The notes beneath the pieces are model-generated. The model did not search any database and was not told the DNA's origin. It was given only the letters and a program-made list of their open reading frames with translations. A stretch of 64,000 nucleotides of DNA, taken from IMG/VR virus record IMGVR_UViG_2703718772_000011. One strand, given 5' to 3'. Origin of the DNA: a virus (Duplodnaviria > Heunggongvirae > Uroviricota > Caudoviricetes). The position numbers and the translations under genes were made by a program. Shown here one piece after another: positions 3,385 through 50,106 of the stretch. The stretch's first letter is position 1. The number at the start of each line of letters is the position of its first letter.

Positions 3385-3542
3385 GTAAGTCTCCTTCTGT
3401 TTGGTTACATTTGCGTTTCGATGGCTACATTTTGACTAAACCTATCAGGCGGAAAAGTATTAAATACAGGCAGGAAATGATTGAAAGGCGACTGTTCTTT
3501 AAAAGAAAGCCTACTTTAAACTTTTTAAAGTAGGCTTTTGTT

Positions 3543-18162: not shown

Positions 18163-19218
18163 ATGAGCGAAAACGGCAATAAAAACATAGCGATCGTTGA
18201 AGCATTTTCAGAAACAGATAAAAAGACAGGCGAAGTTGTTACGTTGGTTCCTAACACTAATAACACTGTTCAGCCTGTTGCTTTGATGCGTCTGGGCCTC
18301 TTCGTTCCGACGCTGAAATCGACATCCAGAGGAAGAAAGGGGCAAATGGTCTCTATGGATGCCTCTGCTGAACTCAAACAGCTGTCTCTGGCAAAAGCCG
18401 AAGGGTACGAAGACATAAGGATCTCTGGCCTTCGGCTTGATATGGATAACGACTTTAAAACGTGGGTGGGAATAATCCACGCGTTTGCCAAACACAAGGT
18501 TGTTGGCGATACTGTCACGTTGCCGTTCGTTGAGTTTGTAAGGCTGTGTGGCATTCCGACCGCCAGGTCATCAGCGAAGTTACGCAAACGCCTGGACAGT
18601 TCGCTAAGCCGTATTGCCACAAATACCATCTCGTTCCGTAGCAAAGGCTCTGATGAGTTTTACGTAACGCATCTTGTGCAAACGGCAAAATATAGTGTCA
18701 AGCACGATACGGTCGAACTGAAAGCAGATCCCAAGATTTTCGAACTCTACCAGTTCGACAAAAAGGTTCTTCTGCAACTCCGGGCTATAAACGAACTCTC
18801 AAGAAAAGAATCCGCTCAGGCGCTTTATACTTTTATTGAAAGTTTGCCGCCTGATCCGGCACCAATATCACTAGCCCGTTTACGCGCCAGACTTAATCTG
18901 ACAAGTCGCACTATTACTCAGAATGCGACGGTAAGAAAGGCTATGGAACAGCTGCGAGAGATAGGATATCTCGATTACACGGAAGTTAAGCGCGGAAACT
19001 CGGTCTACTTCGTCATCCACTATAGGCGGCCAAAGTTACGCCAGGCACAAATATCAACAAAAATCGATAATGATGAGACGGAATATAGCCTCCCAGATGA
19101 GAATCAAGATGACATTATCGACGTTGTGCCTGACGAAAAAGAAGGCAAAATGGTCATGTTGAGTAAAGAAGAACTGGCGCTTCTCGAAGAGTTGCGCAAG
19201 GCAAAGACTCGCAAATAG
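18163..19218 (+). CDS. repA: iteron-binding replication initiator (RepA-like)
   Basis: Only plus-strand gene in this region, flanked on both sides by iteron arrays with origin-like elements upstream; P1 oriR-repA-incA-like layout. Assignment by context. Confidence 0.6.
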
Positions 19219-19219
19219 C

Positions 19220-19703
19220 CCAACCACTGTAGTTAGTAGTAAGGCTCACTATCCACTGTAGTGAGCCTTACTTATATCTGTAATTCGCTATCCACTATAG
19301 TGAGTATCGTTATCTGTTGATAACCACTGTAGGCAGTAGAATGCAAATACTGAATTAAATGTTAGTGATCACTAACACTGATGAAACAAGGGCTGCGAGG
19401 TTAGTGGTCACTGGGTATCTTGGAAAATTTACTGTCTATAGTGGTTGTTGTCGCCCTCATCTTTGAGCGTATCCACTGTGGCGAGTGGATATCCACTGAA
19501 AACAGCAAAGGCTTACTCACCATAGTGGATACCCGCTGGACATCTCACTCCAATACTCACCATAGTGGTTGTTTGATGCGAATGAAAGGCTGTCTACTCG
19601 CTACAGTGGTTAGCAGATATGTAGGAAGGTTTTGTTACTGACTACAGTGGATAATGAGCTGGATACGAATGCGGTGAGCAGACTACTCACCGCAGTGGTT
19701 GGT
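19220..19703. repeat. iteron array C: about 12 CCACTRTAG-type iterons in both orientations downstream of the rep gene
   Basis: Direct copies near 19225-19335 and inverted copies (CTAYAGTGG) near 19432-19703. Confidence 0.75.
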
Positions 19704-29587: not shown

Positions 29588-32500
29588 TTACTTATTTATT
29601 GTCTCCGCGATATCAGCCAGAATGGCCTCCAGTCGCTCTCCTTCTTCCGGTCGGAAGTACAGGATATTCGGGTTAAATCCGTAGAAGACGGTTGCATCAA
29701 GCTCTGGGAAGTACTCCTTACGACCAATCAGATCTGATGGTTTACTCTTATTGTTAAATAGTGCGGTTGAACGACTACCACACGTCAAAATGTAGGTCGG
29801 ACGCACCAGATTGATCTCTTCACGTATAAAGTCGGTGAACTGGCCGATCTCGTCTTTGGTATAGTCTTTCTCTTTGTCCTTAACCTTCTTACAAACACCC
29901 GTGACATAAAGATCGCCCATGCGCAGATCTCCAACTGTCAGTAGTTTTGCCTTAAAGTCGTCGTATCCGTTCTCCATGAAGTAGCCGGTACGAGCGTCAT
30001 TGCCGTTCGCATTGTCCAGAATGATCATGATTTTGGGTTTAATACCAATAGTCGGGCGTATCAACTCCTCACCCAAGCCCATTTCAGCCGCCATACGTGT
30101 CATGAGTACGTTGATTTCGGCAGAACGCTTAGGATTCATTTCGAACGGACGTGATGCTTTAACAGCGTCAATGATGAGATTGCCCATCAGCTCAGCTTGG
30201 TCGCGCAGTCGTTCAGGATCAGTTGCTGGCAGACTGCCTGGCTCAATTGACGCAAAAGCCCCTACTTTATGAAGCGACTCGCGTACACGACTGTTACATG
30301 CACGCTTCTCGACCGCTTCATCGAATTGTGCCACTGACTCGAATTTGCCACCAACTTTCTCACGCGCACGCATAATTGCCTGACAACCATTTTCAGAACA
30401 GCCTTTCACAGCAGAGAATGGCGCATACAGTGCCTGACTGCCGTCTTCGAGTGTGCGGATCTCAATTCGGTTAGATGACACATTAACGTCTGGTGGCAAT
30501 ACGCGAATGCCATAGGTCAGCGCATCCTTCACCAGCCCCTGATGCTTATCCTCGCCCAGAATGGTGAGCGCAGCTGCGAAGAACTCAGCAGGGTAGTGCG
30601 TCTTTAGCCACATAGACTGATAACTGATTAAAGAATAAGCAACGGAGTGTGATTTATTGAACTGATAGGCTCCGTTTTTCTCAAATGCGGTCCAGATCTC
30701 CTTCGCTTTCATCTCTGATAGCCCTGGATGTGACGCTGTAACGCGTACTGCGTTTATAGGTAGTTTTGCGCCGTGCTCAAGTGCCTCTTCGACAGTTTTC
30801 AGAGTTCCGTCTTCGCATTTAAAATGTTCCGCACGGTGAATGCGCTGTGTAGTGCCATCTTCCAGCTCAACGTCTATCCAGCCAGCTTGAGCCTGAACGA
30901 TGAACTTCTCGCCCATGCTCTTCATTTTTTCCATGTTCTTCTTACCGATTGCGGAACGCACAGCGTCAGCTTCAGCCATTGTGAAGCCGGCAAGCAATCG
31001 AGTCGCGTTCATCGTCTGTTCCTGATAGAGAATCACGCCATTTGTTTCCGCGGTAAGTTCATCAAGAACGGGGTGTAATGATTCCGGCGTCATAAAGCCT
31101 TTGGCGACAGAAACATAGTCATCCAACATGCCTGATTGAATTGGCCCCGGCCGGAAGAGCGCAGTTGTAGCGACGACCGTTTTAAAGCTCATTGGCTCAA
31201 TTCCACCACCTAAATCTTTAAGCAGCTTGCGCATTGGGCCTGATTCAAGCTGGAAAACACCTTGAGTGTACCCAGCAGCAAAACCATCCAGCACCTTGCG
31301 ATCTTCAAGAGAAATGGCATCAAGATTGATATCTTCACCTGTGTTCTCTTTTATGTAGCGTTTTGCACTATCGAGCAAATCGAGAGTTGCCAGGCCAAGC
31401 ACGTCCAGCTTAATTAGGCCCATAGCCTCGCAGTAACGCTTGTCAAATGCGATACAACGCGCGTCACCACGGCGCTCAACCGGTGTACGTTCTGTCAGAG
31501 GAACACCTGCTACGATCATCCCTGCCGCATGTCTACCAAAGCCACGCATAAGGCTTTGTAACTTGCAGGCTGCATTGAATGCATCAGGATATTTTGTTGC
31601 GTATTTGTCGAGACTTGCCAGTTGTTCGCGCAGTTCTTCCAATGGAAGGCTATCATCCTCAGCGTTCTTCAGTTCTTTTGATACCGCCATATCTGCGGAC
31701 TCCACACCATAAATACGAGCGGTATCACGTAGTGCAGAGGCTGCGCCCAGGTAGGTGAAGTTCGGAATACCCGCAACGTAATCTTCGCCGTAGCGTTCAT
31801 TCAGATACTCGATCACCTCATGGCGACGTGCCTGGCTGAAGTCCAAGTCCGCATCCGGCAAGTCGAGACGCTCAGGGTTGATGAAACGCTCAAACAGAAG
31901 ACCGTGACGGATTGGGTCGACGTTGGTTATGCCTATGCACCACGCCACCAGAGAACCGGCAGAGGAACCACGACCAGGCCCAACGGGAATGCCAGTTTCA
32001 CGACTATGATTCATCAGATCGCGTACCATCAGGAAGTAACCACAAAATCCCAGGCGAGTCAGCGTGTCCATTTCGTACTTTAGCCGCTCAACATAAACCC
32101 TGTTCTCTGAAGCAGGTGGTGTGTATCCAAACTCTTTTGTGGTAAGACGTTTACGCAGCCCTGCAACAGCCAGTTTCATAAGCGTTGCAGGCTCGTCGTC
32201 TGCCATCTTTGGCAGTGCTGGCGGCAATTCATGCCAGCGCCATGTGCAGGCATCGATAATGGTATCCTGCGTTGTTGAGGCCATTGCAGCTGTTACCGGC
32301 ACATCCATGCGAACGGAGAAGGCTTTAAGCGCCTCAAGGAGATGGCGGCGACCATTGACGGCGTTATCTCGCTGGTGGGGGATACGCAGACGATGCGGCT
32401 GGTCGATTTTGATGTTGTTCGTAACCATGTGCGCAATGTCTTTAATGTCTGCATCGTCGATCGATTCGTAATAAGCGGGATAGAACGCCACTGGCTCTAT

Positions 32501-33106
32501 TTTCAATGCGCTGGCGACTTTCATCGCCCGGACGTTAATCTGGTCGTAGAATGGGGTAGGATGCGGATAAACCACACTATAGAAGTTGTCTTTTCCACCC
32601 GCTGTAATCAGTGTGCTTATGATTTTTGCAAAATCGTTGCGTTGGAACACGCTACCGATGTCGGAAGTAAGCAGGATGATGTTGCCTTTGGCATATGTAG
32701 AAACCAACTGTTCGAGCGAGAGACGCGGTACAAAGTAGAACTGTTCTCGTGTGTTGGCCACCGTCATTAGTTCGCAGATGTCGCGATATCCTTGCTCATT
32801 TTTAATTAGAGCGGTAAACGAGTAGTTACGTCCCCGCTCTAATGATTCCATACATCTCATAGATTCTTTAGCAAGTTTAGCCCGGTGCTCGTATGTGGGA
32901 TCATCAACGATATTTAGTTTCACACCACAAATAACCGCCATGTCGTCACCAGCGGCACGTTGTAGTGGAATAACACTCGCAATATTCATGCTATCTGCTG
33001 AAATTACAGCGGTGTAGCCAGCTTCTCTGGCAATCTTCACCGCGTTTTCTGCTTTTAGAGCCGACTCCCCAAGTGAGAAGTCAGTTCGAACCATCAGTGC
33101 TTTCAT
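29588..33106 (-). CDS. dnaE: DNA polymerase III alpha-type replicative polymerase (DnaE family)
   Basis: 1172 aa; GYFLMVRD..GIPVGPGRGSSAGSLVAW...LLFERFINPER and FNKSHSVAYSLISYQSMWLKTHYPAEF match DnaE catalytic-core blocks. Confidence 0.95.
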   Translation of the reverse strand: MKALMVRTDFSLGESALKAENAVKIAREAGYTAVISADSMNIASVIPLQRAAGDDMAVICGVKLNIVDDPTYEHRAKLAKESMRCMESLERGRNYSFTALIKNEQGYRDICELMTVANTREQFYFVPRLSLEQLVSTYAKGNIILLTSDIGSVFQRNDFAKIISTLITAGGKDNFYSVVYPHPTPFYDQINVRAMKVASALKIEPVAFYPAYYESIDDADIKDIAHMVTNNIKIDQPHRLRIPHQRDNAVNGRRHLLEALKAFSVRMDVPVTAAMASTTQDTIIDACTWRWHELPPALPKMADDEPATLMKLAVAGLRKRLTTKEFGYTPPASENRVYVERLKYEMDTLTRLGFCGYFLMVRDLMNHSRETGIPVGPGRGSSAGSLVAWCIGITNVDPIRHGLLFERFINPERLDLPDADLDFSQARRHEVIEYLNERYGEDYVAGIPNFTYLGAASALRDTARIYGVESADMAVSKELKNAEDDSLPLEELREQLASLDKYATKYPDAFNAACKLQSLMRGFGRHAAGMIVAGVPLTERTPVERRGDARCIAFDKRYCEAMGLIKLDVLGLATLDLLDSAKRYIKENTGEDINLDAISLEDRKVLDGFAAGYTQGVFQLESGPMRKLLKDLGGGIEPMSFKTVVATTALFRPGPIQSGMLDDYVSVAKGFMTPESLHPVLDELTAETNGVILYQEQTMNATRLLAGFTMAEADAVRSAIGKKNMEKMKSMGEKFIVQAQAGWIDVELEDGTTQRIHRAEHFKCEDGTLKTVEEALEHGAKLPINAVRVTASHPGLSEMKAKEIWTAFEKNGAYQFNKSHSVAYSLISYQSMWLKTHYPAEFFAAALTILGEDKHQGLVKDALTYGIRVLPPDVNVSSNRIEIRTLEDGSQALYAPFSAVKGCSENGCQAIMRAREKVGGKFESVAQFDEAVEKRACNSRVRESLHKVGAFASIEPGSLPATDPERLRDQAELMGNLIIDAVKASRPFEMNPKRSAEINVLMTRMAAEMGLGEELIRPTIGIKPKIMIILDNANGNDARTGYFMENGYDDFKAKLLTVGDLRMGDLYVTGVCKKVKDKEKDYTKDEIGQFTDFIREEINLVRPTYILTCGSRSTALFNNKSKPSDLIGRKEYFPELDATVFYGFNPNILYFRPEEGERLEAILADIAETINK

Positions 33107-33285
33107 GTGTTTTTACCTTTATGGTTTTTTTTGATTTTGTCATTGGGGAAGCCTACGAACTTCCCATACATCGAAATCGCAACTTCTTTTGCTGATTGGT
33201 GACAATCGGGCTTGTCTGGACACCCCAGACAAGCCTTGCCAGTTTCAGAAGCAGCGATAAGAGAGCCGAAACATCCTTTACGCAC
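33103..33285 (-). CDS. small Cys-rich protein (60 aa)
   Basis: Tightly packed between AAA+ gene and dnaE; four Cys. Confidence 0.35.
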   Translation of the reverse strand: MRKGCFGSLIAASETGKACLGCPDKPDCHQSAKEVAISMYGKFVGFPNDKIKKNHKGKNT

Positions 33286-33287
33286 GA

Positions 33288-34523
33288 TTAACCAAATATT
33301 TTTTGAACAACTTCACGAGCCGCTTGCGCAGAAGCTGAAGGGAGTTTGTTAATGAAAGAACGCTCAATACCTGTCACAAAGTCGCCTCGCATCATTCCAA
33401 TCTTGGCCGACAACAAAAGTTCACGAGGGCCAATTGGCTGACTGATAAGGTGTTCTTCGTATCCATCGCGAACGATACCGGCAAACTTAACCATCTTTTC
33501 TGCGTATTCATCCACGATACCGGCATTTATCAACATGTTGATCTCTGCCTCTTTGCTCATGTATTTCACATTCGAAACGATGCCAAAACGCGAAAAGTTC
33601 GCGGCGTTCTGGATGTTTGTACCCTGGTACAAGCCGGTTTCATCACCAGATCCGTTCGTGTTGCCAGTGCCAATGAAAGCAAACCGTTCATGCGGAGTAA
33701 TGCGACGCCATTCTGGAGTCGCCTCTTTGATGACCAACGCTTCACCTTCCAGCACTGGCTGATACACGCCAAGAATCTGTGGAAACGCAAAGTCGTATTC
33801 ATCCGCGAGGTAAACCCAGCCATGCTTCATTGCGAGCGCAAGCAAGCCAGGCTCGAAATACGTAGAGCCATCACGCGCCAGAATTTGCCCCGTAACATGT
33901 GCCTCTTCCATTGATGCTGTATGTTGGGCACGGATCAACGGACGATTGAGCAAAGCACATAGTTGTGTAGGCAATGACGATTTGCCTGTTCCTGCATGAC
34001 CCCACAAATAGCCAGGTATGCCAAGTTCAAGCATCATGAAAATGTCTTTGATCAGTTCGAAGTCGCCATATACGTAGCCCTTCTTCACTTCTGGAACGAA
34101 CTCTGGAAACAGCGTATTGACGTTGACGCTAACCATGAGCGGCGTCCCACGTTTTGTTCCGAGTTCTTTCACCGTTACATTTAGCAGTTCGTGAGCTGCG
34201 ACCAGATCTGTCTTGTACTCAACTGTGCCTGTGTAGCCTGGGCTACTGGTCACGCCAGATGATTTGGTCATTTCGCTTTTTTGCTCGGCACGTTTAGCTT
34301 GAATTGCATCAAGTGCCTTTTTCGATAGCGTTGGCTCATCTGGAAACTGTGTTGTGTACATTTTCAGTACGGTGTCAGGATCGGCATCTTTTACTGACTC
34401 AGGAATGCCCTCGCAATTACCATTGGCAACATGGGACTTAAAATAGTGAAATGATTTTCCGCACCACTTGCAAACAAGGTAATCAGAAGGATTTTTTTCA
34501 TTTTGCAGTGCAGTAGTAGTCAT
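33288..34523 (-). CDS. MoxR/CobS-like AAA+ ATPase with N-terminal zinc ribbon
   Basis: CKWCGKSF..C ribbon; Walker A GHAGTGKSS; Walker B LADEYD. Confidence 0.7.
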   Translation of the reverse strand: MTTTALQNEKNPSDYLVCKWCGKSFHYFKSHVANGNCEGIPESVKDADPDTVLKMYTTQFPDEPTLSKKALDAIQAKRAEQKSEMTKSSGVTSSPGYTGTVEYKTDLVAAHELLNVTVKELGTKRGTPLMVSVNVNTLFPEFVPEVKKGYVYGDFELIKDIFMMLELGIPGYLWGHAGTGKSSLPTQLCALLNRPLIRAQHTASMEEAHVTGQILARDGSTYFEPGLLALAMKHGWVYLADEYDFAFPQILGVYQPVLEGEALVIKEATPEWRRITPHERFAFIGTGNTNGSGDETGLYQGTNIQNAANFSRFGIVSNVKYMSKEAEINMLINAGIVDEYAEKMVKFAGIVRDGYEEHLISQPIGPRELLLSAKIGMMRGDFVTGIERSFINKLPSASAQAAREVVQKIFG

Positions 34524-34618
34524 GCGTTTTTCCTTTGTTTTCTAATGAGCGTTCAACTTCTTATATAAATATATCATTATCTATCGTAAGTGGTTACTTA
34601 TCGTTAAGGCTGTTTTGT

Positions 34619-36727
34619 TCACTTTAAAATGATACGAGATAGTTCAGTAACTACAGATGAACCAAGACTATCAACGCTCGTTACCAGGGCATGATTTGAG
34701 TAAAATCTCTCCGGTGCGTCAGTCATGATGCCAATTGCCATCAAATCAATGTCAGTCTGCGTTTCAATTTGCTTCGCAACCGAACGCAAATGAGCGTCAA
34801 AACCTCTCCCAACAGCCCACGGCGCGCCATCGCTCAGAACAAGCATGATCTTCCTGTCCTCCAAGCGACCGGAAAATAACGATGCAAGGCTGGCTATGCT
34901 TTCACCATCCACGTTATTAAGAAGTGGGAATGTGTAGCCTACGCACCCCATACGTGAGCGAACTTCGCGAGAATTTACCTTTTCATTCCAATTTTTGATG
35001 ATAGGTAGCATTAAAGATTCAAAGCGAGAGAACTCATACTTGACAGCCTTAAGTTCTCCTGCCGCCATATGACTACCAAATGTAGTGAAGCCGGTGATAA
35101 TGTTGGGAACATTTATTCGATCAAGGGCATCGGCGATGGTATATGCACTTGCAAGAGCTAGTTTTATCGTTTCGCCACTCATTGAACCTGATAAATCAAT
35201 CACTTGCTGAACACAGGCGTTAACGGCTTTAGATTCTTCTTTTTTACGAAACACGCGATCATCATTCATTGCTAATCTGTAGATACTAGAACCATGAATG
35301 CGCCCCCGACGCTGGCCCGGTATAAACTGAACTCTGTTTCTGCTTGCTATTGCTCGCTCCAGGTCTTTTGCCAGCGTCGACGAAACACCTGACGAAAGAT
35401 GCTTTTCAATATATTTGTCGAAGAGCTGGTTGCCTTCAGGAACGATGCGATAGCGGCTGATTGGACATCCTCCTAAATCAATATCGGAGAATGTTTTAAT
35501 AAGCCGTTTGATATGGGCTTCTGCCTGATCAATCGAGCCGATGAAGTCGTATGAGCGATTGTATGGCCTGTATTCGCTTTTCGAGCTTTCTGTTAACTCG
35601 CTTTTAATCGTTTCGGATAGCGCATCTTCTGTCATGCCTCCGACTTCATCTTCCATGCTATCCAACTCCTCTAAAGCCTCTTCCAGACTCATTTTTGACG
35701 GAGTTGGAATGTCTGAAGAGCCGTCTTCTGTCGTTTTTCTTTTTTCGTGGTCAGCGGTTAATGATTCTGACGCCGCGTTATCAGAAGCATCAGAATCTGA
35801 TACCGCTTTATCATTTTCTGTATCATCGAATATTGTTTCTGATGATTCAGGATTATCTGAATCATCACTGTCATTATTATCATGTTTGTGCTTATTGTGT
35901 GATTCTGATTTGATAGATTTGTGATTATCTAACGCTGAGGGTGTCTCATGATCTTCGTTATCTTCATTGTTTTCTCCAGAGGCATCCGTCTGGTCAGCGT
36001 CTGAAGGATCGGAAGTTTTTCCCGGAGCTGACTCCTTACCTTTGCTTTCACTTTCAGTGTCTTTGAGGATCTTAGCTATGGTCGCAGCCACCTTTACACA
36101 ATCCTCGGTGCAAGACATGTTACGCACGGCCACATCGATACCATGTTCTTTTAATAATGAAATTGGTTTCTCAATGACAGGCCAATATTCATCCATGAAA
36201 TCTACGAACGGTGCTTGGCCATCCCAGGCTCTTACAACCGGACAGAGAAAGAAGTTTAGAAAAAGCGCGCGCTGATCTTTGCCACAATAAGCAATAGCCT
36301 CTGAAGCCTTTGGTTTAAAGACTTTTTCGATTATAAGGCGCTGAGTTGCCATCAGATTACGTCTTGTTCCGTTAAAGACCTGACCCATTTTTCGCTCGAT
36401 GAACACGTCTTCTAAGGCATTCCATAGCGACCAGGAAGGAACGCGTCCTTTTTCTCTCATTTTGTTGGACACACGAATATCGGTAAACAAAATGTGAGCA
36501 ACCTCATGATCGAGAAATCCGCGCACAGCATTCATCAATGCCGGTGTTGCGTTATCCGGGATTGATGGGATGTTTACGAGAATTGGCTCTCCATCATCGT
36601 TATAGCGTACATAAGCGTCGTCCCCTCGTTCTGCAACAGGGATGTTTTTACCTGAAAGGAGAGCGACTACTCGTTTTACACTGTCACGGAAGTCCTGAAC
36701 CTCTTTGATGGAACGTTTTTTAGACAT
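34619..36727 (-). CDS. von Willebrand factor A domain protein (CobT-like partner)
   Basis: C-terminal VWA with MIDAS motif DLSGSMSG; central about 150-aa acidic Ser/Asp-rich low-complexity insert. Confidence 0.7.
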   Translation of the reverse strand: MSKKRSIKEVQDFRDSVKRVVALLSGKNIPVAERGDDAYVRYNDDGEPILVNIPSIPDNATPALMNAVRGFLDHEVAHILFTDIRVSNKMREKGRVPSWSLWNALEDVFIERKMGQVFNGTRRNLMATQRLIIEKVFKPKASEAIAYCGKDQRALFLNFFLCPVVRAWDGQAPFVDFMDEYWPVIEKPISLLKEHGIDVAVRNMSCTEDCVKVAATIAKILKDTESESKGKESAPGKTSDPSDADQTDASGENNEDNEDHETPSALDNHKSIKSESHNKHKHDNNDSDDSDNPESSETIFDDTENDKAVSDSDASDNAASESLTADHEKRKTTEDGSSDIPTPSKMSLEEALEELDSMEDEVGGMTEDALSETIKSELTESSKSEYRPYNRSYDFIGSIDQAEAHIKRLIKTFSDIDLGGCPISRYRIVPEGNQLFDKYIEKHLSSGVSSTLAKDLERAIASRNRVQFIPGQRRGRIHGSSIYRLAMNDDRVFRKKEESKAVNACVQQVIDLSGSMSGETIKLALASAYTIADALDRINVPNIITGFTTFGSHMAAGELKAVKYEFSRFESLMLPIIKNWNEKVNSREVRSRMGCVGYTFPLLNNVDGESIASLASLFSGRLEDRKIMLVLSDGAPWAVGRGFDAHLRSVAKQIETQTDIDLMAIGIMTDAPERFYSNHALVTSVDSLGSSVVTELSRIILK

Positions 36728-36825
36728 GGCTAATCCTTTGTTATGAAAACAAATTATTTACTAGTGTGTTTAATGTAGCACTGCGCGAACAGGGAACTAA
36801 GCCATTCGCGCAGGGAGAAGAGGGG

Positions 36826-37038
36826 TTAACAGATTCTGACGGCTAAAGACCCGGAGCCGGTATTGAGAAGCGTGAAGCGTTTGTTGTTAAGTTCGAATAT
36901 AAATCCAGTTGTGTCATTCACACCAACCTGAATCTGCTCATTCGGTAGATCGGTGAGGATGTCAGCTACACACTCATCAACTAATTTCTGTACGTGTCCG
37001 ATCTCAAGAGCGATTAGGCTGGAAATAGTGGTGTTCAT
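36826..37038 (-). CDS. hypothetical protein (70 aa)
   Basis: Small ORF. Confidence 0.4.
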   Translation of the reverse strand: MNTTISSLIALEIGHVQKLVDECVADILTDLPNEQIQVGVNDTTGFIFELNNKRFTLLNTGSGSLAVRIC

Positions 37039-37289
37039 TCAATCAATCCATTCTAACTTATACTATGGTAAGGAATACTACTAAAATTTGTATCAATACT
37101 GAATACATTCATATCATATGCAAGTTGATTTTCTTACCTATTTTTGGCTAATTTTTCTCCGTGCAATGGCCTTTAACCGGTCTTTTAAGTGCCTATCGAA
37201 AAAAATGATAATAGCTTTACAACCCTAACCTTTGATGTAATATCGGTAAGCACTTACCAGAGAGAATTGAACGCGCAAAGGTTGTAACC

Positions 37290-37676
37290 ATGTCTGATAA
37301 CAAGATTGAATTTATAGAAAGTCGCTACGCTGCTTTTATCGCAGGGTTGATTGAATCCTCACCTATGAGCCAGGCCCAGATAGCCAAAACAATTGGGTAT
37401 AAAAACGCCAACAACCTTTCTTTAATTAAAAGCGGCAAAATTCCTTTGCCTATCGATAAGGTTCGTCCGCTGGCGCTGGCACTGGGTATTGAGCCAAGTC
37501 GTCTTATGATGATGGTGCTGGAAGAACGCCAACCCGAACTCGCAGCATTTTTATACAAAGAAGGCACTGCTCCTCTTAACGAGGACGAAAAACAGGTTCT
37601 TGCTGCATATAACGAGCGATTCGGTAAAGAGAAAGGCGCATCACAAAAGGTTGTTGAGGCCATAAAGTCTCTATGA
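37290..37676 (+). CDS. XRE-like helix-turn-helix transcriptional regulator
   Basis: HTH segment SQAQIAKTIGYKNANNLSLIKSGK; palindrome GGTAAGcacTTACC about 30 bp upstream of its start. Confidence 0.6.
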   Translation: MSDNKIEFIESRYAAFIAGLIESSPMSQAQIAKTIGYKNANNLSLIKSGKIPLPIDKVRPLALALGIEPSRLMMMVLEERQPELAAFLYKEGTAPLNEDEKQVLAAYNERFGKEKGASQKVVEAIKSL

Positions 37677-38774
37677 AAAATTTACACGAATAAGCTCTGT
37701 TGATAGACGATCTCCCTTAAATTTGTGGTCAATTTCGTCTAAATCGGGTTGCTCTACGATTGATGCGATGTACGTCGAGAAACTTTCTAAGGCGTCTCGC
37801 ATCTCGTCCATATAATCGTGCCGGTCGTAGACCCGATCTATCCCCTCAAGACTGTGGTTCATGATTTTACGTGATACCTCCTGGCTTATGCCTAATGCTG
37901 GGAAGTAACTACGCGCAGTACGGCGCAAATCTCGGGGTGTAAATGGCTCAAGCTCCATCAGTTCTGGTCGTTCCAGAATACGACGTAATGCCTGGGCTAT
38001 TGCCACTTTAGACATAGGAAGGTCTTTCCCGATTTTTTTATTCGAAGGCACGAGCCACTGGCTGTCTTTACCATATTCGAACAACTCTTCAATACAAGTG
38101 CGCATTAATGAGCTTAAAGGCAGAGAATGCTCACGGGCAGATTTGTTCCTCTTGCCTTGATTCCAAACCCCACGCTTAAGATTGAACTCACTTTTTTTAG
38201 CACGCAGTACTTCGTCAGGTCGTCTTGCTGATACAAGACACAGTCTGGCCGCCCATTTTGTACCAGCGCACACATTGAAGTAGTCCCATATATTCCAGAA
38301 CACCCATACCTCTGCGTCAGTCAGCTTCCGCTCGCGGGGCGTGGGCTTTGCGCCACCGGCAACTTTGTTAAGTGACATATCGTTTAACGGTGACACGTCT
38401 ATCATCCCCTGGAAGGCGCACCAGCTAAGGAACTGCTTCATCAGAGAGAAAACGCGGCGGCCCATAACAATTTTGCCATCCAGTATTAGTGGGTTGACCA
38501 GTTGGTTCACCATGAACCTATTAATATCACTTACTTTTACATCGGCAATGTGCGGCAAAACATGTATCAAAATACAATGAACAGCGATCTCTGGCCGACG
38601 TCTGGTTATCAGCAGAGATAAGCGAGTGAATAACATGAATGCGTCCGAGAATCTCATGTCATTGCTGACCTGTGAGATCATAACGGCCTGCATTTGAGAT
38701 GCTCTTTCGAGATACTCTATCGCCTCTTTTGAGGTGTTCTCCGCAGCGCGTGCTCTGTCAAAGCTATTTTTCAT
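37671..38774 (-). CDS. tyrosine site-specific recombinase
   Basis: C-terminal box II-like TPRDLRRTARSYF...MNHS...RVYDRHDY with candidate catalytic Tyr. Confidence 0.6.
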   Translation of the reverse strand: MKNSFDRARAAENTSKEAIEYLERASQMQAVMISQVSNDMRFSDAFMLFTRLSLLITRRRPEIAVHCILIHVLPHIADVKVSDINRFMVNQLVNPLILDGKIVMGRRVFSLMKQFLSWCAFQGMIDVSPLNDMSLNKVAGGAKPTPRERKLTDAEVWVFWNIWDYFNVCAGTKWAARLCLVSARRPDEVLRAKKSEFNLKRGVWNQGKRNKSAREHSLPLSSLMRTCIEELFEYGKDSQWLVPSNKKIGKDLPMSKVAIAQALRRILERPELMELEPFTPRDLRRTARSYFPALGISQEVSRKIMNHSLEGIDRVYDRHDYMDEMRDALESFSTYIASIVEQPDLDEIDHKFKGDRLSTELIRVNFS

Positions 38775-38872
38775 ATGACAATCACCGAGTTACGCCGATG
38801 TACTGTATAAGTAAACAGTATATTAGGCATAGATTCTTATAGGATCAAGAGTAAAAGTAACTCATTTTTACT

Positions 38873-38905
38873 AATGATTCCATACATAGTAGGTATGGAA
38901 TCATT
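38873..38905. promoter_or_regulatory. lox/dif-like site: perfect 13-bp inverted repeats flanking a 7-bp asymmetric spacer (aatgattccatac-atagtag-gtatggaatcatt)
   Basis: About 100 bp upstream of the recombinase start codon. Confidence 0.5.
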
Positions 38906-38954
38906 TTGACGTTGTTTTTTGAATTTTAAGGGAAACGGGAGTGAGTTTGGTGGG

Positions 38955-38984
38955 AATAAAAACGGCTCCTGTGAGCCGTTAAAA
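38955..38984 (-). terminator. rho-independent terminator (acggctc-ctgt-gagccgt plus T-run on minus strand)
   Basis: Directly downstream of the glutaredoxin stop. Confidence 0.6.
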
Positions 38985-39230
38985 TCAGAGGGTGCTGACG
39001 TATGCAGCCAGTTCTGTGTATCCGCCAATCGGTTGGCCATCGATCAGCACTTGGGGGATAGTCTCTACCGGTTTACCAACAATTTCACTTAGTTTTTCCT
39101 TGTCGATACCGGCAGTGGTGATGTCGATGTACTCATAATCACCGTAGCCATGTCCCTTTAGTTGCTTCGCCAGCTCGACCGCACGTTTGCAGTATGAGCA
39201 GTTATCTCGTCCGTAGATAGTGATCGTCAT
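38985..39230 (-). CDS. grxA: glutaredoxin
   Basis: CSYC active site; GKPVETIPQVLIDGQPIGGYTELAAYV parallels E. coli Grx1. Confidence 0.9.
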   Translation of the reverse strand: MTITIYGRDNCSYCKRAVELAKQLKGHGYGDYEYIDITTAGIDKEKLSEIVGKPVETIPQVLIDGQPIGGYTELAAYVSTL

Positions 39231-39577
39231 TGCTTTGCCTCATGCCACTTTTGCTTCAGGAGATAGCCTTCCAGGGGCCAGATTTGATCGATAGCATCTT
39301 TTCGAGCGTACTCGCGACCAACATCAAAGTTGAAGATTTCTGGTCTTACGCACGCAGATTTTCCCGTTACGGTATATCCATTTTTGAGAACCATAACGCA
39401 GAACGTTAAGAGTTTTAACGACTCATGACATTTGTCGATATCTGTTTTTGAATTGTAAACGGAGATGAAGTTATCCCCGTGGCTGGCATCATATGCAGTG
39501 AAATAATGTTCACTTTGAATGAGTTGTTCAATGTGTTCAGGGGTGACTTTTAGTGGTGTGTTATCTTTGCTGGTCAT
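39227..39577 (-). CDS. hypothetical protein (116 aa)
   Basis: ORF overlapping the grx start. Confidence 0.5.
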   Translation of the reverse strand: MTSKDNTPLKVTPEHIEQLIQSEHYFTAYDASHGDNFISVYNSKTDIDKCHESLKLLTFCVMVLKNGYTVTGKSACVRPEIFNFDVGREYARKDAIDQIWPLEGYLLKQKWHEAKQ

Positions 39578-39619
39578 TATTTCTTCCTACAAAGTTCGTA
39601 GACTTGACTCTTTCAGTTG

Positions 39620-39650
39620 CAAAAAAGGGGCCGAAGCCCCTTTGAATTTT
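39620..39650. terminator. bidirectional terminator (aaaaaa-ggggc-cgaa-gcccc-tttgaatttt)
   Basis: GC stem flanked by A6 and T-rich tract; ends the tRNA/hairpin transcription unit. Confidence 0.7.
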
Positions 39651-39718
39651 GCGCTGAAAAAAAGTGTTGCTAGGATGTTAGCAAGCTATGGTTAAGAACG
39701 TCTGCCGTAATTGTCTAT

Positions 39719-39796
39719 CACAGCGTTGAGCGGTCTGGTTTATGTTAGCGGAGTCTTAATCTGGGTGATTAAAAGGCCAAACCGCTCAACGCTGTG
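39719..39796. ncRNA. tRNA-sized stem-loop element 1 (16-bp stem cacagcgttgagcggt / accgctcaacgctgtg)
   Basis: Related stem sequence recurs at 39986, 40116 and 40727. Confidence 0.35.
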
Positions 39797-39798
39797 TC

Positions 39799-39885
39799 TG
39801 GCGGAGAGTAATGGAATCGAACCATCATCGCTTGCGCAATGGGACGGTTTTCAAGACCGCTTGAGCACCATGCTCCCTACTCTCC
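39799..39885 (-). tRNA. tRNA-Ser (anticodon TGA), class II with long variable arm
   Basis: Hand-folded: acceptor ggagagt/actctcc, anticodon loop cttgaaa, T-loop ttcgatt, ends GCCA; D-arm somewhat atypical. Confidence 0.65.
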
Positions 39886-39985
39886 GGCTATTGTGATGGT
39901 CGGTGCTGAACTCCGACACAGGGTTGTAGCAAGCCCCGCAAAGCGCGCACTACTGTAGTTGCGGCACATCAGCCTGTGCATTCAT

Positions 39986-40064
39986 CACAACGGTAAGATC
40001 ACTACCTTTCGACCAGTCATTGTGCACATGAACGACGATTAACCGTAATGATCTTATCGTTGTG
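39986..40064. ncRNA. tRNA-sized stem-loop element 2 (cacaacggtaagatc / gatcttatcgttgtg)
   Basis: Paralogous to elements at 39719, 40116, 40727. Confidence 0.3.
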
Positions 40065-40115
40065 TTGTGAAGCCAGATGCTTATCTTCTGGTTGCTTCAA
40101 AGAGCTGCACTTCCT

Positions 40116-40204
40116 CACAACGGTAAGAGCACTGGTCTGACTCTATCGATTTACGGGCTTGTGGGTCAGTATCGCCGATTCGCCCAATGCTCTTACCTGT
40201 TGTG
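40116..40204. ncRNA. tRNA-sized stem-loop element 3 (cacaacggtaagagc / gctcttacctgttgtg)
   Basis: Abuts tRNA-Thr; no canonical T-loop found. Confidence 0.3.
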
Positions 40205-40205
40205 T

Positions 40206-40282
40206 TGGTGCCGGTTAACGGGATCGAACCGCTGACATCCTGCTTACAAGGCAGACGCTCTACCAACTGAGCTAAACCGGCA
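40206..40282 (-). tRNA. tRNA-Thr (anticodon TGT)
   Basis: Acceptor tgccggt/accggca, D-arm agctcagttggtagagc, anticodon loop cttgtaa, T-loop ttcgatc, CCA encoded. Confidence 0.85.
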
Positions 40283-40285
40283 ATT

Positions 40286-40372
40286 TGGTGGGGAGTGATG
40301 GAGTCGAACCACCCGAGTCGCAATGACAGTAGATTTACAGTCTACCCCGCTGCCCCTACGGACTAACTCCCC
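40286..40372 (-). tRNA. tRNA-Tyr (anticodon GTA), long variable arm
   Basis: Acceptor ggggagt/actcccc, anticodon arm gtaga-ctgtaaa-tctac, T-loop ttcgact, CCA encoded. Confidence 0.8.
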
Positions 40373-40377
40373 TAAAT

Positions 40378-40452
40378 TGGCGATGGTGGGTGGATTCGAA
40401 CCACCGACCAGTTGGTTAACAGCCAACTGCTCTACCGCTGAGCTACACCATC
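40378..40452 (-). tRNA. tRNA-Asn (anticodon GTT)
   Basis: Acceptor gatggtg/caccatc, D-arm gctc-agcggta-gagc, anticodon arm gttgg-ctgttaa-ccaac, T-arm ggtgg-ttcgaat-ccacc, CCA encoded. Confidence 0.9.
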
Positions 40453-40726
40453 AATTCAGCACTGCCAGTATTTATTACTCAACAGTGCCAATCGCGACGG
40501 TTTAGTTTCTGCCAGGAAACGCACCGCTACTTGCACTTTTCGTTAGTGCCAGACGCTTTCGACTTCGCTCAATAGTAGAAGGCAAAATCTTTAAGTAGAT
40601 GATGTTTCTGAGGACAGCACCTACTTTGTAATTTATACAATGTGATATATGGAATCATTTGTTGTGAAAACAGGCACCAATGGCAACAGTGGTTAAACCT
40701 ACACAACAATCCCGTCTTCACAACGT

Positions 40727-40841
40727 TGAGGCCACTACTCCGATTGAATGTTTGCCCAACATGTTACATATCAACGCTCGCCGGTATCTCTGTGAATAGA
40801 ACCTTAGAATTGATAAAAATGTAATGGCCTCAACGTTGTGT
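40727..40841. ncRNA. long stem-loop element 4 (cacaacgttgaggcc / ggcctcaacgttgtg)
   Basis: 15-bp perfect arms about 85 nt apart inside a 700-bp ORF-free region that also holds hairpins at 40921..40994 and 41003..41026. Confidence 0.3.
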
Positions 40842-41230
40842 GCTGGCTAACCATACCAGCCGGGCTACGTCGCCGCTTTTTAACCCAGTATAAACGACAT
40901 AATTGAACAAAATGACGTAACAGAATGGGCGGTCAGTGGCTAAGAATCCGGGAGTCATATGGAGTTGAAAATATACCAACCGCCCATTCTGTTACTTCAT
41001 CGGAGGGAACATGAATGTTCCCTCCTGCGTTCTGCAATCACACTCGCTCAGTGTGTCCCATTTCGGTAACGAGGCTGGAAACTGACCTCGCTGGTGTTTG
41101 GCTTATTAGGCTACTGCCAGATAGACTTCTTCGTTTGCACTTGTATTTAAGTTCAAACAGTCGCGTCTCAACGAAAACAAAGTCATCTTATACATAAAAG
41201 ATAAGTAAGTAAATACTTATCATGATGTTT

Positions 41231-41521
41231 TTATTCGGTTGTGACTTTTTTGATCAAGGCCACTCTACGACTAGGTGTTCTTGTGATGGTGGCAGTGAAT
41301 CGTTTCGCCTGGATAGTAATGGTTTCGTTCTCCTTAAGTTGCCCGTAGCGAGTTTCCACCAGGGTGCCAAGACGCCACAGACCATCATCGATACGTTTAT
41401 GACTAGCAAATTTAATCAGCAACAGTTTTACGACTAACTGACCTACGTAAAAGGCGAATGCGACTCCGGCCGCTAAGAAATAGGTGGCCAACCACCAGTC
41501 CCAAGAAGTTAAATTGCTCAT
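41231..41521 (-). CDS. membrane protein (96 aa)
   Basis: N-terminal transmembrane segment WWLATYFLAAGVAFAFYVGQLVV. Confidence 0.5.
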   Translation of the reverse strand: MSNLTSWDWWLATYFLAAGVAFAFYVGQLVVKLLLIKFASHKRIDDGLWRLGTLVETRYGQLKENETITIQAKRFTATITRTPSRRVALIKKVTTE

Positions 41522-41670
41522 TTTCTAACCTTTGTTTCATGAACTACCCGATACACACGCTTTCCGATGCACAGTGTTTTGGTTTTAAGTTCCTGCTTAA
41601 TTAAATCACGACAGATGCCGAAGCCGATAAGGAAGCCACCCATAAAAGCTAATGAGATGTATGGAATCAT
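41518..41670 (-). CDS. small membrane protein (50 aa; below ORF-track cutoff)
   Basis: Hand translation MIPYISLAFMGGFLIGFGIC...; stop overlaps next start (ATGA). Confidence 0.3.
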   Translation of the reverse strand: MIPYISLAFMGGFLIGFGICRDLIKQELKTKTLCIGKRVYRVVHETKVRK

Positions 41671-41882
41671 TTTAACACTCCTGATTCTACTAATTGCTGT
41701 AGCAATACTTTCCCTTTATCAGTTAACTGGTAGTTGGCCGAGCACCACGTTTCAGAAACGTTTGCAACCAACCCTAAACGCTCTAACTTAGCTCGCGTTT
41801 TAGGCTTCCAGTACTCAGGGAACTCCGGCCACTTACTGATTTCATGAAGCGTTTCTTTCTCCCTTTTACTTAATACGATCAT
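41667..41882 (-). CDS. hypothetical protein (71 aa)
   Basis: Small ORF overlapping ligase stop. Confidence 0.45.
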   Translation of the reverse strand: MIVLSKREKETLHEISKWPEFPEYWKPKTRAKLERLGLVANVSETWCSANYQLTDKGKVLLQQLVESGVLK

Positions 41883-43201
41883 TCTTTATCTCCGATTCGA
41901 TCTTCGGTATCGCGTAAGCAACGCGGCCATTTCAGTCGTGGGTGGCGTAAGCTGCCGTCCGGTGTTTTCTCGTGACAATGAACCTCGACAATACGACCAC
42001 GGTACTTCTCTTTGTTGTTCCAGATCTCGTCCAGATATTTATGCTTAATGCCGCTCGCACGAACGATGACGCCGTTTTCAAGACGAATAACAATTTTTCC
42101 AAGTGTGTTGGCAAAACCAGAGTCCGGGTCGCCCGGCTCAAAGTCGATAATTTCACCATCTTCTGAATCTTCGTCTTTTAACTTCCACCAGCTGCGGGTA
42201 CGTTTAAACTCGTAAACAGAGTTCGGATCTTTGCCCATCTCCCCTTCTTCGTTATCGTCCAGGCGTTTCATGAAGCGTTCGATGAAGTCTTCGTGGCTAT
42301 GGATGATGTAGAACGGATGCAGGTGAATGTCTCGTGCGTAGCCTTCACTGCGATCGTTTTTGAACAACGCCACGAGCATAGCCAGGCGCTCTTTCAGCTT
42401 CATACCTGTCTTTGCATACTCTTTGGATTTAGCCTGTGCCCGCCATTCCGGTAGGAAGAAGTCGAAAACATGATAAATAGCGCCAATTGCCTGCACGTTC
42501 TTTTTGCGCAATGCAGATACGGACTGGTTAAATGAACCGGCTGTTCCTTCACCATCGAAGAAGATGTGTTTGTGGCCTGAAAGTTTGCCTAATTCGAGCA
42601 TTGCTGGCTTTAGGTGATCGAGAGACGTGATTGGATTACCAGTACGAGAAAGGAAGTTAACCTCTTCCTCGTCAACAATAACCTCGCAAATTACTCGCAA
42701 ACCATCGAGCTTAAGACTGCCAATCATCGGCCATTTTGCTTTAGGATTTGGCTTGAAGGGGTATTTGTCGCCTTTTTCTTTATACGGTGACGCCAGCTGC
42801 ACCTCGAATTTCGGAATGGGATTTTCAAAAACCTTGTTGCATAGGCTAATCCCAACACCTGCTTTCGGGTCTTTTAAGAGGAAACGACGGAACACGTCCT
42901 GCCCATCGGCGCACATTGACGCCACGATAGACTCAACAGCTGCTATTGCTGCGTTCCCCGTCAGCTCGCGAGAGGCCAGCTTATTCAGTACATCAATGGC
43001 TTTTTCGTCACTTGGGACGGACTCACTAAGCGGCTCTGCCACTTTGTATTTCTTTACCCCAAAACGGATGAAAGGGTTGAGCATCAATGAAACCATGCTT
43101 TGTTCAAAGTCATCCATGTTGGCCAATGCCTCTTTTTTTGCATTGGTTCCCATAGCTTTCATTTCGTCCAGCTTATGCTTAAGTGCGATCAACTTTTTCA
43201 T
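41879..43201 (-). CDS. ATP-dependent DNA ligase-like nucleotidyltransferase
   Basis: Motif I KLDGLR (K-x-D-G-x-R); 440 aa. An RNA-ligase identity cannot be excluded by eye. Confidence 0.7.
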   Translation of the reverse strand: MKKLIALKHKLDEMKAMGTNAKKEALANMDDFEQSMVSLMLNPFIRFGVKKYKVAEPLSESVPSDEKAIDVLNKLASRELTGNAAIAAVESIVASMCADGQDVFRRFLLKDPKAGVGISLCNKVFENPIPKFEVQLASPYKEKGDKYPFKPNPKAKWPMIGSLKLDGLRVICEVIVDEEEVNFLSRTGNPITSLDHLKPAMLELGKLSGHKHIFFDGEGTAGSFNQSVSALRKKNVQAIGAIYHVFDFFLPEWRAQAKSKEYAKTGMKLKERLAMLVALFKNDRSEGYARDIHLHPFYIIHSHEDFIERFMKRLDDNEEGEMGKDPNSVYEFKRTRSWWKLKDEDSEDGEIIDFEPGDPDSGFANTLGKIVIRLENGVIVRASGIKHKYLDEIWNNKEKYRGRIVEVHCHEKTPDGSLRHPRLKWPRCLRDTEDRIGDKE

Positions 43202-49026: not shown

Positions 49027-49078
49027 AGCTGACACTGTAGTTATGCATTGGCGCAATGTACGCGCCAATGCATGATTT

Positions 49079-49438
49079 TTAACCTTTCTTCATCAACTCT
49101 CGTTTGATTTCATCGGTACGCATCGTGACATCGGCAGCGGTGATCGCCTCATTCAATTTCACGATGTCCTCGATTTCCTGCGGTGACTTCTCTGCCAGAT
49201 GGAAAATGGCTGCTCGAATCACGTCAGAACGAGTGAACTTCTCGAAGCGAGGGATGAACTTCATCATCTCCAGCAGTTCGAAGTATTCGTCCTCCAGTGA
49301 CATTGTGCGGCTTTTAATTTTCTCTTTGCCACGAGTCGGGCGTCCCTGTGGTCTGACTGGTTGGCGCAAAGGAGTTGTGTTCTTAGCCGGTGCATCAGGC
49401 TCTTTGCGCTTTGCTAGGTCACCCATTTTCATGGACAT
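49079..49438 (-). CDS. putative partition adaptor / centromere-binding protein (ParG/ParB-like)
   Basis: Small basic protein immediately downstream of parA; assignment by context only. Confidence 0.4.
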   Translation of the reverse strand: MSMKMGDLAKRKEPDAPAKNTTPLRQPVRPQGRPTRGKEKIKSRTMSLEDEYFELLEMMKFIPRFEKFTRSDVIRAAIFHLAEKSPQEIEDIVKLNEAITAADVTMRTDEIKRELMKKG

Positions 49439-50106
49439 TATTCTTCTTCCTCCAGACTCAACAGATAATCTACAAATTCTTCAAACTCGGCTTCCGCCTT
49501 CTTGTCGCGTTCGCTACCGGTCATTTCAAAGATAGAACGACCTGACTCTTCCGCATCATCGTAGACGTTGCGGTTATATAGATTGACTGGCGCAGACTCG
49601 ATGCCGAACGTCTCGACAATCTCTTTAGCCGCCAGAATGCGAGACACTTGTGATGGCAAAGCCGGGCACTGGTTCATGACCGCGCGGACCTTCACTTTAT
49701 CGTTTACATTGCGAACATTGTCGATAATAGGATCGATGTCACGTAAAGATTTCAAATCACGACGCTTAGGACGCAGCGGGATAATGATAACGTCAGCCAT
49801 CAGCATCGCTTGTCGCTGAATTTCGGAGTCGAAGCCACCAGCATCTACCACTACAAACTCAGCTCTACCCTGAAGCGATTTTAGGTGCTTAATGATGTCA
49901 TCCTGAACGTATGCAAAAGGAATCAGCTCAAGGTCTTCGTTCTGTCGACGGTCTTCACACCAGCTCGTTGTCGTGCGCTGAATATCTATATCGGTAATAT
50001 AAACCTTCTTCTTCTTTTTGACTTTCAGGCAAACGGCAATTTGCTGGGCAACGGTGGATTTGCCAGGCCCGCCCTTTGTGCCGCCAACCACAAAGATCTT
50101 GGTCAT
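49438..50106 (-). CDS. parA: ParA/ParF-type partition ATPase
   Basis: Deviant Walker A GGTKGGPGKST; 222 aa small ParA. Confidence 0.85.
   Translation of the reverse strand: MTKIFVVGGTKGGPGKSTVAQQIAVCLKVKKKKKVYITDIDIQRTTTSWCEDRRQNEDLELIPFAYVQDDIIKHLKSLQGRAEFVVVDAGGFDSEIQRQAMLMADVIIIPLRPKRRDLKSLRDIDPIIDNVRNVNDKVKVRAVMNQCPALPSQVSRILAAKEIVETFGIESAPVNLYNRNVYDDAEESGRSIFEMTGSERDKKAEAEFEEFVDYLLSLEEEE

Follow-up and report, generated by a model that had tools for sequence, protein, structure and literature searches.

Plasmid multimers are resolved at simple recombination sites by the Cre/loxP system of P1 and the ResD/rfsF system of F. Lambda-type integrases typically use a 7-bp overlap, and the Rci/sfx shufflon of IncI plasmids has sites with a 7-bp spacer and arms of ~12–13 bp, some of them single-armed and in opposite orientations. 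Here, we analyzed a 33-bp inverted repeat (IR) and the adjacent tyrosine recombinase gene (int, encoding Int) in 64,000 nucleotides of Caudoviricetes DNA (IMG/VR record IMGVR_UViG_2703718772_000011), a stretch that we call the window. By analogy, Cre/loxP and ResD/rfsF appear to be the functionally closest described systems, and our preferred reading, to which we give a probability of about 0.6, is that the IR and Int form a self-by-self multimer-resolution system in which the IR would be Int's simple crossover site. The core of such a system is expected biology for a low-copy plasmid prophage. In the literature searched, the recombinase site and role of this group of elements are undescribed, the recombinase is mentioned in general terms, as a persistent gene that "may" resolve dimers, and this clade's arm sequence did not turn up in any paper, while matches to the variant arm described below were unrelated primers.

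The element is an SSU5-like phage-plasmid; identity over the region is 97% with Escherichia phage Cyrano and 99% with many ~100–120-kb plasmids of E. coli. Matches in PLSDB comprised 730 plasmids from Klebsiella, Escherichia, Enterobacter, Yersinia, Citrobacter, and Salmonella. By sequence comparison, the element belongs to the SSU5/pHCM2/pMT1 phage-plasmid group, which is common in E. coli, Klebsiella, Salmonella Typhi, and Yersinia pestis and carries virulence and resistance cargo. The plasmid replicon and ParA named in the original prediction, which had been made from the DNA letters of the window, are both there, as a RepA (Rep3) gene (18163..19218) and a ParA-like ATPase gene (49438..50106).

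Window positions 38873–38905 read AATGATTCCATAC-ATAGTAG-GTATGGAATCATT, in exact agreement with the predicted perfect 13-bp IR around a 7-bp asymmetric spacer: the 13-nt arms are perfectly complementary, and the 7-nt spacer mismatches its reverse complement, CTACTAT, at positions 1, 4, and 7. The spacer is nonetheless near-palindromic, and a repeat search also returned the site as two 16-nt arms (94%) separated by 1 nt. The arm-spacer-arm pattern is single in the window even with 3 mismatches tolerated, and its left end lies 98 nt from the int ATG (38772–38774, minus strand), close to the ~100 bp upstream of the recombinase gene that had been claimed. Perfect IRs with arms of at least 13 nt and spacers of at most 12 nt numbered 4 in the window versus 0.01 in Markov-1 simulated sequences of the same length and dinucleotide statistics, so that a perfect IR is by itself non-random, yet not unique in the window. 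The distinguishing marks of this IR are its conservation, its fixed position, and the extra copies of its arm. As single-stranded DNA, it folds into a hairpin of −11.1 kcal/mol versus −2.0 ± 1.3 for shuffles (z = −7.1), and an Rfam scan of positions 32000–43000 returned tRNAs only, with no known RNA family at the IR. The end of the right arm, 38905, is the exact endpoint of many alignments to relatives.

Site and enzyme proved to be linked. When viral contigs were scanned for both exact arms, whatever the spacer, 80 loci were returned, and in all 80 an Int homologue (59–100% identity) starts 44–130 bp from the site. In a protein-first search, unbiased by the site, 68 of 71 loci had exact arms 95–99 bp upstream of int; a further locus, at 56% identity, had cTTGATTCCATAC-ttatata-GTATGGAATCAAa, with outer positions altered in both arms, and the last two were a 5′-truncated int and an unrelated 27% integrase. 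Every one of the 69 full-length Int relatives from this search thus has the IR. The comparison with related elements, proposed earlier as a check, therefore found the site kept at a constant distance upstream of int. Int relatives at 44–50% identity (Providencia, Xenorhabdus, Erwinia, Pantoea, Rahnella) carry a variant IR, (A/G)TGACTCCAGAC-N7-GTCTGGAGTCA(T/C), located 50–110 bp upstream of int and retaining the 7-bp spacer. From TGATTCCATAC to TGACTCCAGAC, two arm positions are altered, in both arms, along with the enzyme; the Photorhabdus site has an intermediate arm form, and locus L164 shows symmetric changes at outer arm positions. The Erwinia, Pantoea (507-kb replicon), and Rahnella loci (L169, L170, L172) keep the IR and int, lack the convergent helix-turn-helix (HTH) gene that adjoins int in phage-plasmids, and have ordinary metabolic or transport, non-phage genes as neighbours. 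Because the IR persists at these three loci without the HTH gene, it travels with Int and not with the HTH regulator. These comparisons make it likely that the IR is the site of the adjacent Int, a pairing that we regard as more secure than the multimer-resolution role.

The spacer between the invariant arms takes at least 11 forms among relatives (ATAGTAG, CTACTAT, CTAAAGA, CTAAGGA, TTAATAG, CTATTAA, CTTACAA, TTTATAG, CTACCAA, TTACATA, TATATAA, CTTCCAA), always of length 7, and the site flanks also diverge freely. Given that the spacer drifts freely, the site would meet only copies of itself and not a conserved attB. Two cases of spacer flipping were seen as well. Between PhiR41_1 (L001 4274–4306) and L039 (4934–4966), which have the same flanks, the spacer alone is flipped (ATAGTAG/CTACTAT), and L041 and L093 differ by a TTAATAG/CTATTAA flip from the rest of the 86% clade, with which they have their flanks in common. 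Most simply, such a flip would be a hairpin-mediated template switch, neutral for a site with symmetric arms.

Spacer drift also bears on the possibility that the IR is an attP core at which Int integrates the element into the chromosome or another replicon. The annotation of the gene as "integrase", its distant kinship to lambda/P4-type integrases, and the occurrence of some Int homologues on 0.4–0.7-Mb contigs would fit such a role, but the spacer variation is too broad to be compatible with a conserved attB overlap. Int with its site was found in 252 of 5,426 complete E. coli genomes, at 255 places that were all plasmid-borne (0/255 chromosomal). The exact 33-bp site, found in 206 E. coli genomes, was present in one copy per replicon on plasmids of ~100–120 kb and never on a chromosome, and records with "two places" were explained by cargo insertions or record-origin splits. 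Across 185,579 species genomes (one genome per species), exact arms occurred 7 times, each beside int (Kluyvera, Chimaeribacter, Buttiauxella, Y. pestis pMT1), and no exact-arm site without an adjacent int was detected. On large replicons the IR is intact beside int and not split into attL and attR, Int lacks an arm-binding domain, and none of the genes was recognised as Xis-like. Neither arm-type repeats nor an alternative attP, which would have contradicted the original prediction, appeared in a repeat search around the IR. Chromosomal integration is thus highly improbable and appears largely refuted, and the earlier suggestion that this is not a chromosomal integration module was supported by the plasmid-only sites and the lack of any attB-like site without int. 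In the 206 genomes, a single site per monomer, a plasmid-borne location, and an adjacent recombinase were found together, as expected for plasmid multimer resolution.

Int matched Pfam PF00589 (2.9e-10; 40.6 bits against a cut-off of 27.1 bits) and the PHROG 1 integrase family (4.8e-47), and aligned to NCBIfam PRK09692, a P4-type integrase profile, only over residues 71–336. Its AlphaFold2 model (predicted local distance difference test score 83.4; residues 1–55 modelled as helices) had lambda Int as its best Foldseek match (1z1b, E = 4.3e-7; 1z19 also matched), followed by Tn1549 Int, Xer, and IntI (2a3v, ranked after lambda Int and Xer), with probability 1.00. Cre chains ranked 39th or lower, at E values of 0.06–0.27, and a phmmer search of Int against all PDB chains gave no match at E ≤ 1. 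No PF13356 or PF09003 match indicative of an arm-binding domain was obtained for Int, unlike the outgroup integrases (≤34% identity), which carry PF13356. In an alignment of 29 homologues (42–90% identity), ARRPDE (Arg), RNKS (Lys), PRDLRRT (Arg), and DRVYDRHDY (Tyr) were invariant and MNHSL (His) was kept in at least 90%; these putative catalytic residues were assigned by motif inspection and not by structural superposition. Profile and predicted fold both place Int in the tyrosine recombinase superfamily, and by descent it appears to be a lambda/P4-type integrase that lost or never had the arm-binding domain.

Compared with Cre/loxP, the locus similarly pairs a plasmid-prophage tyrosine recombinase with a single simple site beside its gene, with 13-bp perfect arms, an asymmetric spacer, a plasmid-only lifestyle, and multimer resolution as its presumed job. 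In contrast to Cre/loxP, Int has no detectable Cre sequence similarity and only a weak fold match (E ≥ 0.06), all relatives, the variant-arm clade among them, have a 7-bp spacer like the one here instead of the 13-8-13 arrangement, and a LexA box, extra isolated arm copies, and a site far from the packaging end are present. The lambda/P4 integrases share with Int the closest structure, the PRK09692 profile, and a 7-bp central region; unlike them, Int lacks the N-terminal arm-binding domain, no arm-type sites, Xis, attB, or integrated copies were found, and long, perfect 13-bp repeats take the place of their short, imperfect core sites. The likeness to Cre/loxP, FLP/FRT, and XerCD/dif proposed in the original prediction has to be qualified in that the enzyme is lambda/P4-core-like rather than Cre-, FLP-, or Xer-like and in that the spacer has 7 bp instead of 8 or 6.

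In the multimer-resolution system that we favor, one Int monomer would bind each 13-bp arm. Homologous recombination or replication would dimerise the ~108-kb plasmid prophage, producing two directly repeated sites, which would synapse as an Int tetramer and exchange strands across the 7-bp spacer. The dimer would thereby return to monomers, then segregated by the ParA system. LexA would keep Int low, and Int would rise in the SOS response, as would RecA-driven multimerisation. We infer Int-arm binding, the cleavage positions, independence of accessory factors, the multimer-resolution role, and LexA control from these comparisons, and a 33-bp footprint would suit a recombinase dimer better than a dimer of an XRE-type HTH protein. 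Between the two functions originally suggested, dimer resolution seems favored by the plasmid-only distribution, the single copy, and the spacer drift, while cyclisation of infecting DNA looks less likely because, in the Cyrano record, ~41 kb separate the site and the terminase end.

Several observations weigh against this system. Among complete E. coli genomes, we found no natural dimer, cointegrate junction, two-site replicon, or hybrid site at the IR. The first His of the HxxR motif is Arg throughout the Int family (29 homologues), symmetric arm changes would also keep a hairpin, so that co-variation alone leaves a structural role possible, and LexA repression of a multimer resolvase is not obviously expected. 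In addition, three isolated arm copies are conserved in all TGATTCCATAC clades while their flanks vary; plain resolution predicts none, and a regulatory DNA-binding protein would explain them no less well. Finally, Salmonella phage SSU5, which has no int, IR, or HTH gene, keeps all three isolated copies, although its deletion may be recent. In SSU5 (L176 42525–42761), the whole gp49-grx-IR-int-HTH-70aa block is gone and tRNA-Asn is followed directly by cobT, in agreement with the description of this phage as virulent; one of its isolated copies has a core mutation seen in no Int-positive genome.

The isolated copies lie 1.8–6 kb from the IR (Table 1). The copy inside dnaE falls in a poorly conserved linker, and its 13-mer is invariant in 25 loci (15 distinct sequences) in which flanking codon positions vary. 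The intergenic copy has one mismatch here and is exact in most relatives, and under the third copy the 50-aa open reading frame (ORF) starts with ATG ATT CCA TAC (MIPY). Complete Cyrano (108 kb) has the 12-mer core 5 times versus 0.017 expected, with no 1-mismatch copies, and its five arm copies, all within 9.2 kb, are oriented toward the IR centre. Variant-arm phage-plasmids had no isolated copies within ±10 kb, and the dnaE copy was missing at the homologous place; because these elements keep the IR without them, the isolated copies are an add-on to the basic module. They could reflect Int acting as a regulator, another protein reading the motif, or a polar replication or translocation signal. 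It is rather unlikely, in our view, that the five co-oriented copies form one system converging on the IR, with Int or a partner as polar regulator of the phage replication module or with the outer copies as a directional guide or fork trap; if true, such a five-copy arrangement would be undescribed for simple-site tyrosine recombinases. Base pairing between the RNA of the 50-aa ORF start and dnaE mRNA was considered and rejected: the two share a 20-nt identity here, but the 7 nt after the arm mismatch in other clades.

An arm-like sequence is also found within int (38164–38174; codons V-W-N-Q), with one mismatch in its 11-nt core here. The 86%, 83%, and 56% clades have this core without mismatch, and the Rahnella copy is 1 mismatch from its own variant arm. 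This sequence is most simply a codon coincidence, or it could be an autoregulatory site.

Single-armed sites invite comparison with Rci/sfx, which the locus resembles in its 7-bp spacer, arm length, and single-arm sites in opposite orientations. Unlike the shufflon, however, site order and orientation are constant in ~80 loci, where shufflon-type inversion between single-arm sites was looked for and not seen; the 7 nt after the single arms differ from each other across clades, and inversion would destroy dnaE.

The same copies raise the possibility that the IR and its isolated relatives are operators of a sequence-specific regulator and that no strand exchange takes place at the IR. Candidate regulators would be the convergent HTH repressor, another phage-plasmid protein, or Int as a DNA-binding repressor, and the targets would be int, the adjacent cargo promoter, the tRNA cluster, the 50-aa ORF, and dnaE. 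The presence of five copies of one 12–15-nt motif in 108 kb (0.017 expected), the conservation of the single copies beyond coding constraint, and the positions of one copy over a start codon and another upstream of tRNA genes all fit operators, as does the close placement of the IR against the int 5′ region in the 59% Int clade, where 44 bp separate it from the ATG. Cyrano lysogens express the homologue of the HTH gene, CYRAN_45, described as a "putative repressor" (PMC9928086). However, the IR stays with Int where no HTH gene adjoins, and the regulator, although it adjoins int in phage-plasmids, has no link to the IR elsewhere. The arms also change together with the Int clade, the IR is retained in variant-arm phage-plasmids without single copies, and 13-bp arms whose centres are 20 bp apart would be unusual as a site for XRE dimers, while the invariance of the putative catalytic residues argues that catalysis is in use. 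Moreover, this repressor has a more convincing candidate operator than the IR in the 14-bp palindrome GGTAAGCACTTACC, found at 37245–37258 within the HTH promoter region: allowing up to 2 mismatches, the window contains 8 copies versus 1.5 expected, and several immediately precede operon starts. Taken together, we consider the operator explanation unlikely.

That the arm is a polar DNA signal unrelated to recombination, either as a fork trap with opposed terminators or as a hairpin insulator between cargo and int, seems very unlikely. A plasmid-encoded replication fork trap with two opposed terminator sites is known from R6K, and in the phage-plasmid the five copies face the IR centre; two outer sites flank it on one side and a single one does so on the opposite side, within 9.2 kb of the replication-gene cluster. 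The IR forms a stable hairpin, followed 9 nt later by a T-run. With three outer sites only, however, this orientation pattern has a 1-in-8 probability by chance, the IR accompanies int on replicons with different replication genes, the outer sites are missing in the variant-arm clade, and no candidate terminator protein was identified. As for an insulator, the T-run does not directly follow the hairpin, which lies upstream of the int promoter, and in this window no gene reads into it. An intrinsic terminator at the IR was rejected on similar observations (AT-rich stem, T-run 9 nt later, nothing transcribed into the IR here), and none of the host Tus/Ter, Fur, IHF, and sigma-E motifs appears to fit the site.

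Regulation of int itself may involve the SOS response. The LexA box TACTGTATAAGTAAACAGTA is the sole perfect match to TACTGT-N8-ACAGTA in the window, and CTGT-N8-ACAG is kept in the 83–100% Int clades. The putative int promoter was read by eye, with 8/12 consensus matches, which is below the threshold of the promoter scan, and the scan found nothing. The LexA box and both hexamers are conserved in the 83–100% clades and absent in the 59% clade and the variant-arm Providencia locus. These patterns suggest SOS/LexA control of int, at least in the closer clades, and Cyrano is inducible by ciprofloxacin (PMC9928086). A sigma-70 promoter in or beside the IR was also considered; the scan was negative, and hand-fitted hexamers near the T-run were spaced inconsistently between relatives.

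Beyond the right arm, a semi-conserved T-run/GAAATCTGA motif separates the IR from a cargo slot. Most relatives have a similar T-run-(G)AAATCTGA at the same offset irrespective of cargo (loci include L002, L013, L018, L050, L065, and L078), and it could act as a bend, an accessory site, or a promoter element. The slot is empty in this window, where the grx terminator comes next. Elsewhere it holds CYRAN_43 in Cyrano (L002 3443–3997), an AraC regulator with chaperone-usher genes in PhiR41_1 (L001 4708–7301), three ORFs in pJN2-26, a colicin-type DNase with immunity plus a toxin-antitoxin pair (ParE/Phd) in Xenorhabdus (L175 6884–9666), and the caf1M-caf1A-caf1 F1 capsule operon in a Y. pestis pMT1-type contig (L091 40–3890), with the caf1 stop ~630 bp from the IR. 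The site is therefore a landmark for the cargo slot holding the plague F1 capsule operon. CYRAN_43 expression is reported to be 723 times background in lysogens (PMC9928086).

Such a hotspot immediately past the right arm, together with a tyrosine recombinase gene that has an SOS box in its promoter like those of integron integrases, could suggest integron-like capture, with Int inserting circular cargo cassettes at the IR. Unlike integrons, the locus has no attC-like second sites and no cassette arrays. No second copy of the IR or arm was found at the far side of any cargo examined, and because no second site bounds the cargo, integron-like capture is unsupported. The cargo pieces have their own promoters, resembling ordinary morons, and the semi-conserved flank motif stays between the IR and the cargo. 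We give cargo capture by Int only a slight chance.

If the IR is indeed the crossover site of Int, a defined site would offer a testable maintenance mechanism for SSU5-group elements. The SOS box and the converging arm copies are unusual extras compared with other simple-site systems on plasmid prophages. In addition, the two naturally orthogonal enzyme/site pairs, with TGATTCCATAC and TGACTCCAGAC arms around a 7-bp spacer, would be possible genome-engineering tools if the sites prove sufficient.

Table 1. Coordinates of the recombination locus and of related features (window positions unless a locus is named).
Feature	Position	Strand	Remarks
IR left arm AATGATTCCATAC	38873..38885	+	int-proximal; putative binding site of one Int monomer
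Spacer ATAGTAG	38886..38892	+	7 bp, asymmetric; presumed overlap (strand-exchange) region
IR right arm	38893..38905	-	AATGATTCCATAC on minus strand, GTATGGAATCATT on plus
Tyrosine recombinase Int, 367 aa	37671..38774	-	lambda-integrase-like core-binding and catalytic domains
LexA (SOS) box TACTGTATAAGTAAACAGTA	38801..38820	.	overlaps expected int transcription start
Putative int promoter	38820..38848	-	-35 TTGATC (38843-38848), 17 nt, -10 TAATAT (38820-38825)
HTH (XRE-type) regulator	37290..37676	+	convergent with int; homologue of CYRAN_45
GGTAAGCACTTACC, other copies	190, 2406, 11952, 26936, 52740, 56845, 57902		
T-run/GAA motif TTTTTTGAATTTTAAGGG	38915..38932	+	9 nt past right arm
Intrinsic terminator, gp49-grx operon	38961..38980	-	far edge of cargo slot
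Isolated arm copy	32841..32853	+	inside dnaE, antisense, ~250 nt from dnaE start; toward IR
Isolated arm copy AATGATTCCATAT	40647..40659	-	intergenic, ~195 nt upstream of tRNA-Asn/Tyr/Thr/Ser cluster; toward IR
Isolated arm copy	41659..41671	-	spans start codon of 50-aa ORF 41518..41670 (phrog_6302); toward IR
int-internal arm-like copies elsewhere	L091 5268; L085 19612; L164 2119; L172 7635	-	
Other perfect IRs (all four)	49043-49073; 19238-19272; 3506-3538; 53172-53211		

The other perfect IRs of the window include ATGCATTGGCGC-aatgtac-GCGCCAATGCAT (12-7-12) at the end of the parA operon, possibly a terminator or centromere, a 14-7-14 repeat after the repA stop, one 15-3-15 repeat, and one 14-12-14 repeat. 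A long inverted repeat at 40718–40840 (CACAACGTTGAGGCCAyTAC / GTAGTGGCCTCAACGTTGTG, ~80 nt apart) lies just upstream of the intergenic arm copy and the tRNA cluster, and a weak partial tmRNA-like Rfam match was seen at 41055–41157 (17 bits, far below the gathering threshold). Finally, a 779-aa ORF (22446–24785, minus strand) is annotated as a LAGLIDADG homing endonuclease in the 99% identical plasmid L004 and as RecA in Cyrano; the two annotations suggest an intein-containing RecA, and a LAGLIDADG domain is also present in an AAA_5 gene of Xenorhabdus (L175).

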